This document shows positions 1-3,000 of a stretch of DNA of 64,000 nt, piece by piece. The stretch lies in assembly GCF_013167455.1 (NCBI RefSeq), contig NZ_CP038328.1; one strand, given 5' to 3'. Numbering within the stretch: position 1 is the stretch's first letter; every line of letters begins with the position of its first letter. The position numbers are program-made. Source of the DNA: Escherichia coli O157:H7. GTDB lineage: Bacteria > Pseudomonadota > Gammaproteobacteria > Enterobacterales > Enterobacteriaceae.

Positions 1-3000
1 GATGTCGATTAAACATTATGATGTTGTCAGGGCGGCGTCGCCGTCAGACCTTGCGGAAAAGCTGACACACAAACTGAAAGAGGGCTGGCAGCCGTTTGGT
101 AGTCCGGTGGCCATAACCCCTTATACCCTGATGCAGGCGATTACAGCAGAAGGTGATGTGGTGGTCAGTGGTGCAACTGAGCCGGATTGGTACTACGTCA
201 TCGTACTGGCCGGGCAGTCCAATGCCATGGCTTACGGTGAAGGGCTTCCGCTGCCGGATTCATACGATGCTCCGGATCCGCGCATTAAACAGCTGGCGCG
301 CCGCAGTACAGTGACGCCGGGTGGGGCTGCCTGCAGATATAACGATATTATTCCGGCCGACCACTGCCTGCATGATGTGCAGGATATGAGTACGCTGAAT
401 CATCCGAAGGCAGACCTGAGCAAAGGGCAGTACGGCTGTGTCGGCCAGGGGTTACATATTGCCAAAAAACTGCTCCCGTATATCCCGAATAACGCGGGGA
501 TCCTGCTGGTACCATGCTGTCGTGGTGGTTCGGCATTTACCCAGGGCGCGGAGGGGACATTCAGCGAGTCCACGGGGGCCAGCCAGGATTCGGCACGCTG
601 GGGGGTGGGCAAGCCGTTATATCAGGATCTGATTTCCCGCACAAAAGCGGCATTGCAGAAAAATCCCAAAAACGTTCTGCTGGCCGTCTGCTGGATGCAG
701 GGAGAGTTTGACATGAGCGCCGCCACCCACGCACAGCAACCTGCGCTGTTTACAGCCATGCTGGCACAGTTTCGTGCTGACCTCTCCGTGTTTAACGCGC
801 AGTGCCATGGTGGCAGTGCTGCAGATGTGCCGTGGATTTGTGGTGACACGACGTATTACTGGAAAAATACATACGCTACCCAGTACGACACCGTGTACGG
901 CGGGTATAAAAACAGGGAGAGTGAGGGCGTTTATTTTGTGCCCTTCATGACAGACGGTAACGGCGTCAATACCGCCACTAACGCGCCGGCAGAAGATCCG
1001 GATATTCCGGCATCAGGATATTACGGTGCGGCATCGAGAACGAATGGAAACCAGGTATCATCAAACCGCCCGACACATTTCAGTTCATGGGCGCGCAGGA
1101 GCATTATTCCGGATCGTCTGGCAACCGCTATTCTGAACGCAGCCGGGCGCACCTCAGCCTTCATCAGTGGTAAGGCACCGGAAATCAAACCCTCGCCCGG
1201 CGGCAACACGCCATCGGGTCCGTCTGCAGATACGTCCGTTCGCACAATCTCCCTGCTGCCGGCAGCCGGAGAGGCTGCTGCGCAGGGCTGGAGCATTAAG
1301 GATGGCGGAATTCAGTTGTCAGATGGTGTATTTAAGATCACCAGGCAGAGCAATAAAACCTGGTCCCTGACGCATCCGGTGGATGACGCAATTACCCTGC
1401 TGACACAGGGCGGCAGACTGACCTGTAAGTTCCGCCTGTCAGGCGCGCTGACCAACAATCAGTTCGGGCTGGGGATTTATCTGTATACGGATGCTCCCGT
1501 TCCTGATGGTGTGGCGATGACGGGTACCGGTAATCCGTTCCTGATGTCGTACTTTACTCAGACCACTGACGGCAGAGTGAATCTGATGCATCACAGGAAA
1601 GCCGGAAACACGAAGCTGGGGGAGTTCGGCGATTACGGTAACGACTGGCAGACGCTGGAGCTGGTGTTCACCGCCGGCAGTGCCACGGTTACTCCGAAAC
1701 TGAATGGAGTGGCTGGCCCGGCATTCCAGGTTATAAAAGACAGTCTGACACTGGGACTGAATGCGCTGACGCTGACGGATGTTACAAAAAATGCAGCGTA
1801 TGGCGTTGAGATAGAAAGTCTGGTGCTGGAGATAAATGCACCGGCAGCATAATAAAAAAAGAGCCAGCGACTGACCTGAAAGAAGACGCTGGCTAAAAGG
1901 CCTTATATGTTTGTAGAGACTTATTTTTCACAGACAGCAATGATGCCTGTCAATATATTATCAATATGCGGATTGTTTCAGTTACAGATGCTTTATTAAG
2001 GAAAAAAACAGCCAGCACTGACTTTCGGTGGAGAGGTGCTGGCTCAGAAGGATAGTTGGATTTCACATGATACTTATGCCTGGCGGTATATTTTCTGACA
2101 GACAGTGACGGGTGTTGTCAAGATATTGTGTCATTTATAACCTGAATCAGGGGGTGGCCGGAATGTTATCTGGCATTTTTAGCAGAGCCTGAATGCCATA
2201 ATCACGGCTCCCGGCGTTGGCCGTCAGTGGGTGACACTGGCGGCTTTTTTGTTTTTCTTTACTTTCATTTTCTGTCGGCGGTGACGGAGACATACATCAG
2301 ATGGAAAAAATCACAACGGGTGTGTCATACACCACGTCAGCGGTGGGGACGGGATACTGGTTACTGCAGCTGCTGGACAAAGTCTCTCCGTCCCAGTGGG
2401 TGGCGATAGGCGTGCTGGGGAGTCTGCTGTTTGGGCTGCTGACATATCTGACGAACCTGTATTTCAAGATTAAAGAAGACCGGCGTAAGGCGGCGCGGGG
2501 AGAGTAAAGTGATGAAGAAAAAATACGAACTGGTTGTTAAAGGGATAAATAATTACCCGGATAAGATTACTGTTACTGTGGCACCGGAAATTGGTGGGTA
2601 TCCGTCACTGTTGTTGCCAGATGTGGCGATTAGTCTTGACCGTACTGAAGGTGCCACGCTGGAGTTTTACGAAGCTGAGGCGAAAAAGCAGGCGAAGCAG
2701 TTTTTCATGGATGTTGCTGCCGGGTTATGTGAAGGGGATGGTCCGTTACCGGAAAAGCGTCCCGTAATTTTAGAGGCGCAGGATGTGTTGATAACCTACA
2801 GAGGAAAACTACCGGGAATAATTACGGGTTCTCTGAAGACTCCACCGCTGGCCTGAAGACTTAACATATCCAGGGATTTGAAATCGATAAACCCTGATAA
2901 ATATCCATGAACGCAAAAATCAGATACGGCCTGTCGGCTGCCGTTCTGGCGCTGATTGGTGCAGGGGCGTCTGCGCCTGAAATCCTCGACCAGTTTCTGG

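Follow-up and report, generated by a model that had tools for sequence, protein, structure and literature searches.

In the 64,000-nt stretch of the Escherichia coli O157:H7 genome analyzed here (assembly GCF_013167455.1, contig NZ_CP038328.1; hereafter the window), a small gene lies at positions 2512-2856, between the gene for an S21-type holin (S) and the gene for a signal-arrest-release (SAR) type lysozyme (R). Its 114-aa product is, with near certainty, a member of the YdfR (DUF1327) family, and comparison with related phages shows that the gene, referred to below as ydfR, is a sharply bounded optional accessory module of the lysis cassette. The parts of the gene and of its immediate surroundings are as follows, with all coordinates given in the window:

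2512-2856, + strand: YdfR-family (DUF1327) coding sequence, 114 aa plus stop, from the open reading frame (ORF), its translation and Pfam PF07041
2497-2504, + strand: Shine-Dalgarno (SD) sequence GGGGAGAG of ydfR, within the last S codons; anti-SD duplex of -8.1 kcal/mol, 7 nt ahead of the ATG
2512-2733, + strand: conserved core, residues 1-74, with strands at 5-14, 18-27 and 37-43 and a helix at 50-73; conserved family-wide
2578-2637, + strand: segment swapped between the two main alleles, codons 23-42; end of strand 2, loop and strand 3
2734-2853, + strand: tail of variable sequence, rich in Pro and Gly, residues 75-114; truncated here, while longer relatives have it as a linker
2857-2906, + strand: 50-nt spacer, an SD-less, AU-rich R leader (…CCTGATAAATATCC-ATG) with zero anti-SD complementarity

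The ydfR gene and its position between S and R

The S gene ends with TAA at 2505-2507 and is followed by a GTG at 2509 and an ATG at 2512, while the ydfR frame closes with TGA at 2854-2856, which places the ydfR ATG 4 nt past the S stop and the end of the gene 50 nt ahead of R. The ATG at 2512 is taken as the true start because all homologues begin at the equivalent ATG (MKKKYEL or MTQNYEL). The translated product matches Pfam PF07041 (DUF1327) at 155.2 bits (E 5.4e-46, against a gathering cut-off of 25 bits for this family), with residues 1-112 aligned to positions 1-92 of the 93 in the profile, and the core of residues 1-74 by itself reaches 133.7 bits. It also matches PHROG 406 (E 4e-64) as well as PHROGs 2091 and 1085, all three of which are tagged 'unknown function'; none of the NCBIfam models match the window protein. 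The Pfam and PHROG matches, the strong SD sequence and the substitution pattern of the core described below establish a genuine gene rather than a chance ORF. Given the 4-nt gap and the location of the SD inside S, translation of ydfR is probably coupled to that of the holin.

The maximum Kyte-Doolittle mean over 19 residues is 0.89 for the window protein, compared with 1.83 for S and 1.67 for R. Its isoelectric point (pI) is 5.46, with 15 aspartate and glutamate residues against 14 lysine and arginine residues (net charge -1), although the tail taken alone is basic (pI 8.4); proline and glycine make up 11 of the 40 residues at 75-114 but only 9 of the 74 in the core. A promoter scan returned three sites where 3.9 were expected, none of them upstream of ydfR, and a search for a second ydfR copy within the window found none. 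The gene encodes a small soluble cytoplasmic protein and is transcribed along with the lysis genes. Much of this bears out the initial annotation, which had placed a gene of about 114 codons at these coordinates, tightly packed between a pinholin and a SAR endolysin gene: the start, the packing, both neighbours (PF04971 upstream and PF00959 downstream), the missing transmembrane segment and the Pro/Gly-rich tail all hold. Its description of the protein as acidic is right for the overall pI but overstated, with acidic residues in excess by one and a basic tail.

Phage 933W resembles the window in its S (96% identity) and R (97%) proteins, in its ant-like gene and in its Rz/Rz1 order, but it has no DUF1327 gene; instead, R comes right after S and uses an SD within S. 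The R ATG of 933W is found at the S stop plus 4 nt, the exact position of the ydfR ATG in the window. Since S and R of 933W are adjacent without ydfR, the gene is not part of the lysis machinery, and the comparison shows an optional module with sharp boundaries rather than a holin, SAR-endolysin or spanin component. By the same comparison, the cognate holin and endolysin would not require ydfR for lysis. S directly precedes R in phage 21 as well, and in lambda the two genes are adjacent and overlapping; the initial annotation had noted the direct succession in both phages. Its word 'inserted' implies a direction of change that is not assignable: what the sequence shows is an optional module with sharp boundaries, R of 933W beginning where ydfR begins here.

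The position of the module is constant. In each lysis-cassette locus examined (Qin, L003-L006, Evi, PhiR42_1, mEp460 and YYZ-2008), ydfR starts 4 nt past the holin stop, and the same holin-ydfR-lysozyme position is found in loci L010-L012. Two holin families (PF04971 and PF16080) precede ydfR, yet the lysozyme next door is always of the same 177-aa type. The sole copy found outside a lysis cassette is a distant 72-aa homologue at L007 4001-4219 (CP075169.1, GCA_016865525.2; Pfam E 4.8e-11), which a prophage carries between its tail genes M and L, beside HicB-like and ORF6N genes and far from any lysis gene.

This fixed site between holin and endolysin, together with a lysozyme partner that stays the same while the holin family changes, is what would be expected of a cytoplasmic regulator of lysis timing, whose target could be the pinholin, for instance at the basic C-terminal tail of that holin, or the SAR endolysin prior to its export or while export is under way, and which would thereby delay or sharpen lysis. 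In the same direction, the Keio deletion of ydfR is listed as envelope-leaky (CPRG+, for chlorophenol red-beta-D-galactopyranoside) in the supplementary tables of a genome-wide study (Paradis-Bleau et al., 2014; PMC3879167), but, with ydfR overlapping the first part of the lysozyme gene rrrQ, polarity of the kan cassette is a plausible cause of this leakiness instead. Such a regulator is nonetheless unlikely: the nearly identical S and R of 933W work without ydfR, the window protein has neither a transmembrane segment nor a signal sequence, overproduction of K-12 YdfR does not slow growth (Gopel et al., RNA Biol 2026; PMC13232886), the homologue in the tail cluster is away from any lysis gene, and the searches made revealed no similarity to a described antiholin or endolysin regulator. 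Identity with an antiholin or lysis regulator of the kind of lambda S107 or S21-71, T4 RI or P1 LydB was rejected on the lack of a transmembrane or signal segment, of any matching Pfam family besides DUF1327, and of any such regulator named among the PHROG and NCBIfam results.

Distribution of the family and anatomy of the protein

The gene, its family and its lysis-cassette position are already known to databases, and RefSeq applies the name 'YdfR family protein' to DNA copies that are 100% identical in E. coli O157:H7 chromosomes. The initial annotation had presented the ORF as an extra gene of unknown function; rather than an unusual or unrecognized insertion, it is a member of a long-catalogued family, found at the same site in Qin and in the majority of Stx1a and Stx2c phages, and present in over half of the complete E. 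coli genomes. A megablast match occurs in at least 2923 of 5426 complete E. coli genomes, in up to eight places per genome. Of the phage records searched, 369 have a match to the S-R region and 101 encode a DUF1327 protein; among the latter are 41 phages converting to Shiga toxin (Stx) type 1a, 15 of type Stx2c and only two of type Stx2a, against 124 Stx2a-converting records with a match to the S/R region. Within this collection, the gene is present in the majority of Stx1a and Stx2c phages and in almost no Stx2a phages. Phage YYZ-2008, the closest relative, encodes an identical protein and is 99.1% identical over 1301 nt to window positions 2200-3500, from just upstream of S through R; it is a Stx1-type prophage whose stx lies about 3 kb (within about 3.5 kb) upstream of the ydfR cassette.

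Beyond these phages and their hosts, the family is narrow and tiny, with 256 clusters at 90% identity in a collection of 5.8 billion proteins, 54 representatives at 50% identity among 1.84 billion proteins, and only four loci in 100,044 one-per-species genomes, namely E. coli, E. albertii and two contigs of metagenome-assembled genomes (MAGs). The genome contig scan for a wider taxonomic range returned Escherichia only, besides these two MAG contigs. The MAGs are labelled Collinsella sp. and Bacillota bacterium (L019, known by a tblastn match, and L020). The L020 contig, although binned in a Gram-positive MAG, has a lambdoid S-ydfR-R-Rz cassette typical of E. coli, in which YdfR has 206 aa and another C-terminal tail; judged from L020, the one inspected, both contigs are probably binning contaminants. 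In another prophage, that of E. coli O157:H7 PV15-279 (L001 8396-10242), a 100%-identical ydfR precedes a lysozyme gene that an IS1203 insertion has split, and this cassette is defective while its ydfR remains intact.

The relative that gave the family its name is YdfR of E. coli K-12 (b1555, P76160), encoded in the cryptic prophage Qin in the order essQ-ydfR-rrrQ-rzpQ. Both are DUF1327 proteins with 46% identity over residues 1-74 (BLASTP E 1e-22), and in both cases the gene starts 4 nt past the holin stop with the same SD. They differ in that K-12 YdfR has 103 aa and an unrelated C-terminal tail overlapping rrrQ, which AlphaFold predicts to be helical (Gopel et al., 2026; PMC13232886), whereas the window protein is 114 aa long with a tail rich in Pro and Gly, and its gene stops 50 nt short of R. 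At codons 23-42, the two carry different, non-homologous alleles.

In an AlphaFold2 model made with a 28-sequence alignment, three antiparallel strands of the window protein lead into a long helix; confidence is moderate to high here, with means of 71-92 in blocks of 10 residues over residues 1-70, and the predicted local distance difference test score is below 50 over residues 77-114. The ratio of nonsynonymous to synonymous substitution rates (dN/dS) of the core is 0.16-0.46 in every informative pair among eight homologues, which places the core under clear purifying selection. Inside this conserved domain, codons 23-42 are only 22% identical in nucleotides to the allele of L003, as against 68-88% in the flanks, and alignment columns 301-360 agree; this pattern is that of a non-homologous, cassette-like replacement.

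Conservation across the family is limited to residues 1-74, and beyond them at least five different tails occur, giving proteins of 72 aa (core only), 103 aa (K-12), 113-116 aa (the window type), 176-183 aa (with a charged C-terminal extension) and 206 aa. The 72-aa stand-alone core is an intact ORF in Evi, L009 and L007, and the C-terminal parts are often truncated, frameshifted or replaced. The long forms of 176-183 aa (P0112, P0105 and P0004) share with the window protein a core and linker that are identical or nearly so up to ...SLKTPP, but continue with a charged extension of about 60-70 aa, after which come about 320 bp with an antisense ORF of 86 aa. Compared with the long-form locus L003, the window is without about 460 bp, comprising the C-terminal extension and most of the 320-bp stretch with the antisense ORF; as a consequence, its frame ends in ...KTPPLA and the sequence rejoins the conserved R leader. 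The alignment thus suggests that the 114-aa form arose by deletion relative to the long form.

The antisense ORF, of 86-98 aa, is conserved between ydfR and the lysozyme gene in long-form loci and some core-only loci, is absent from the window and matches no Pfam family. Its copies are located as follows:

L003 4479-4739, - strand
L010 4465-4725, - strand
L011 1768-2028, - strand
L014 (Evi) 3244-3540, - strand

One further protein, P0001 (196 aa), has its core duplicated internally. Fusions of holin and YdfR (P0010 and P0068; 184-187 aa, PF04971 plus PF07041) were judged to be frameshift or assembly artefacts, since the two frames differ in the window; the one fusion cluster inspected, P0010, is found in ENA only, with two members on one contig.

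A constant core with at least five C-terminal tails and a non-homologous segment swapped within it, present or absent between sharp boundaries, is also the build that a moron would have, that is, a mobile accessory cassette at a recombination-permissive junction whose benefit to the phage or lysogen is unrelated to lysis and lies, for example, in countering an RNA-targeting host defence or in resisting cold or envelope stress. The extremely narrow taxonomic range of the family, the stand-alone 72-aa copy amid other inserted genes of a tail cluster and the reported cold induction of Qin genes (Gopel et al., 2026; PMC13232886) point the same way. This explanation is doubtful, however, as the scan described above gives ydfR no promoter of its own, expression from the late operon means that the protein is not obviously made in a lysogen, and PADLOC yields no match above chance. 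As an anti-phage defence protein, the product was rejected on a sole PADLOC-DB match at chance level (E 0.021, 12.9 bits).

Translation starts of ydfR and R, and the neighbouring genes

The presence of ydfR has a consequence for R that can be read from the ribosome-binding sites. In seven ydfR-containing cassettes, the SD of ydfR (GGAGAG, at the 3' end of the holin gene) pairs with the anti-SD at -7.4 to -9.1 kcal/mol, while the value for R is 0; in 933W, by contrast, it is R that uses this same SD inside S, at -8.1 kcal/mol. Read as RNA, the R leader of the window is CCUGAUAAAUAUCC-AUG. An SD-less, AU-rich R leader is conserved in all ydfR cassettes examined, including those of L003 (4820-4852), K-12 (L002, upstream of rrrQ), L014, L016 and L020. 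On predicted duplex energies, this comparison shows that the presence of ydfR changes how translation of R would start, with the SD handed over from R to ydfR. In this way ydfR takes over the strong ribosome-binding site embedded in S that serves R in cassettes without ydfR, and the proposal is that R, left with an SD-less, AU-rich leader, would have its SAR-endolysin synthesis lowered or re-tuned relative to that of the pinholin.

No RNA element was found that could share in this effect, as the fold of the ydfR-R spacer is no better than that of shuffled sequences (z -0.19) and Rfam has zero matches in window positions 1-8000; on these two results, a regulatory RNA in the spacer was rejected. 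An extreme version of the proposal would make ydfR a spacer that acts in cis, the coding sequence serving mainly to uncouple R from the site within S and so to attenuate the endolysin, while the protein is nearly dispensable and decaying. Wherever ydfR is present, R is indeed without an SD, the C-terminal parts of the family show the truncations, frameshifts and replacements described above, and the window copy has lost the C-terminal module of its longer relatives. A mere spacer would not, however, be expected to keep a core under purifying selection, an intact stand-alone core of 72 aa in three loci, or an intact frame in thousands of copies, and this alternative is accordingly held to be very unlikely.

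The genes that share the cassette with ydfR are:

2301-2507, + strand: class II holin of the S21 type, 68 aa, a pinholin by homology; PF04971 E 7e-33; 96% identity to 933W S
2907-3440, + strand: SAR-type lysozyme R, 177 aa; PF00959 E 1.5e-24; 97% identity to 933W R
3711-4280, + strand: Ant-like gene (P22_AR_N) between R and Rz; PF10547 E 1.4e-45; at the position of 'ant' in 933W
4423-4896, + strand: Rz i-spanin; PF03245 E 1.3e-46; with an embedded +1 Rz1-like ORF at 4649-4834, an arrangement as in 933W

The start of S deviates from that of its relatives. Positions 2290-2303 of the window read ATA CAT CAG ATG, where 933W, L003 and K-12 essQ have the ATG-x-x-ATG motif of a dual-start holin and antiholin, and with ATA in place of the upstream ATG only the 68-aa product can be made. 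A tie between the presence of ydfR and the loss of the dual start was considered and discarded, given that K-12 and L003 possess both. The R protein begins with a weakly hydrophobic Gly/Ala-rich segment, LSAAVLALIGAGASAPEIL, and its residues E35, D44 and T50, as read from the translation, have a spacing that we take to be that of the catalytic triad of phage 21 R.

Further features of the region were recorded in passing. A strong terminator-like hairpin (11 pairs, seven of them GC) followed by TTTTTTGTTTT lies at 2219-2255, about 50 nt upstream of S and inside the late operon, so that late transcription presumably must read through it. Between the Ant-like gene and Rz, positions 4277-4426 hold a hydrophobic ORF of 49 aa that matches no Pfam family; its equivalent at L001 11082-11228 is annotated as a hypothetical protein. 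Positions 2-1852 encode a 616-aa protein with a DUF1737, a SASA esterase domain and a DUF6645, which is a NanS-p-type sialate O-acetylesterase of the kind that Stx phages carry downstream of stx; the window therefore begins just downstream of the position that stx occupies in YYZ-2008.

Candidate functions of the YdfR core

YdfR is listed as uncharacterized in the 2024 survey of the y-ome (PMC11551758), and at present the gene stands as a conserved hypothetical of that group with one biochemical lead, of recent date, and no phenotype demonstrated. That lead comes from K-12. A bacterial two-hybrid screen picked up codons 1-72 of ydfR on three occasions, the full-length protein interacts with residues 1-597 of RNase E, RNase E 1-598 co-elutes with Strep-tagged YdfR, and nucleic acid resistant to DNase co-purifies with the protein (Gopel et al., 2026; PMC13232886). 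The stretch encoded by these codons corresponds to the core that is conserved across the family.

The reading preferred here combines three parts: membership of the YdfR family, a core that serves as a module for binding RNase E and RNA, and the effect in cis on R outlined above. By this reading, the beta-beta-beta-alpha core of residues 1-74 would be a domain that binds the N-terminal, catalytic half of RNase E of the host and would probably engage RNA as well; late in infection, YdfR would then modulate the action of RNase E, in RNA decay or processing, on phage late transcripts from the lysis region or on host transcripts. As a whole, this reading is given a probability of roughly 40%, and the RNase E and RNA mechanism by itself, argued from the K-12 homologue, is given about one chance in three.

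Several observations weigh against it. The RNase E data come from a homologue that is 46% identical in the core, carries the other allele at codons 23-42 and has an unrelated tail. Within those data, overproduced K-12 YdfR alters only a few transcripts, a contaminant as the RNA binder was not excluded by the authors, and full-length T25-YdfR gave a signal solely with Rne 1-597 (Gopel et al., 2026; PMC13232886). Structure searches with the model give no support, as all Foldseek matches have E values above 0.3 in PDB and above 0.1 in BFVD; a sequence-profile search of PDB finds no relative, and the Pfam dsrm family does not match the core at E values up to 10. A role in RNase E action alone would, moreover, leave the fixed position beside the lysis genes unexplained, and the effect on R translation is a prediction from differences between SD sequences.

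The fold of the core recalls a double-stranded RNA-binding domain (dsRBD; alpha-beta-beta-beta-alpha), with which the model shares three antiparallel strands and the long helix that comes after them. In the window allele, an AKKQAK at the N-terminus of this helix is reminiscent of the KKxAK motif of dsRBDs. Assignment to the dsRBD family (PF00035) was nevertheless rejected, as the core has no N-terminal helix, the comparison with this family fails in Pfam as described and by Foldseek (E >1), and distant members of the YdfR family do not retain the basic positions. Pfam searched at E values up to 10 returned no family beyond DUF1327. The homology and structure search that the initial annotation had proposed has thus yielded the family but, from fold or sequence matches, no function. 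Of the finding that it had named as one that would refute it, a known conserved late-region protein with an assigned function, the first half is borne out: the protein is known and conserved in late regions, but it has no assigned function.

The two halves of the preferred reading can be joined in a more specific proposal, in which the YdfR core is a phage adaptor that binds RNA and is directed at RNase E, acting on the SD-less, AU-rich leader of R or on other sites of the late transcript. In this way it would set the ratio of R to pinholin and, hence, when lysis occurs and Shiga toxin is released in Stx1 and Stx2c phages, with the swapped segment and the C-terminal modules as specificity determinants. 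In all its detail, this proposal is a long shot. If it is true that ydfR tunes the stability of late transcripts or the level of endolysin, the gene could add to the differences in lysis timing and toxin release among Stx phage types.

To a gene that was already named in databases, the present analysis adds the boundaries of the optional module, the division into a core and a variable tail with a swapped segment, the apparent origin of the 114-aa form by deletion, the predicted hand-over of the SD from R to ydfR, and the connection with the RNase E result of 2026. Among phages, modulators and binding partners of RNase E are established, with T4 Srd, T7 gp0.7 and phiKZ Dip as examples. Neither these three nor the host protein RapZ was found to have a sequence or fold relationship to the window protein, and the likeness to RapZ is a functional analogy only: RapZ is an adaptor on RNase E's catalytic domain, and K-12 YdfR likewise binds the N-terminal catalytic half of the enzyme (Gopel et al., 2026; PMC13232886). 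If the preferred reading is true, YdfR would be a further phage protein that targets RNase E.

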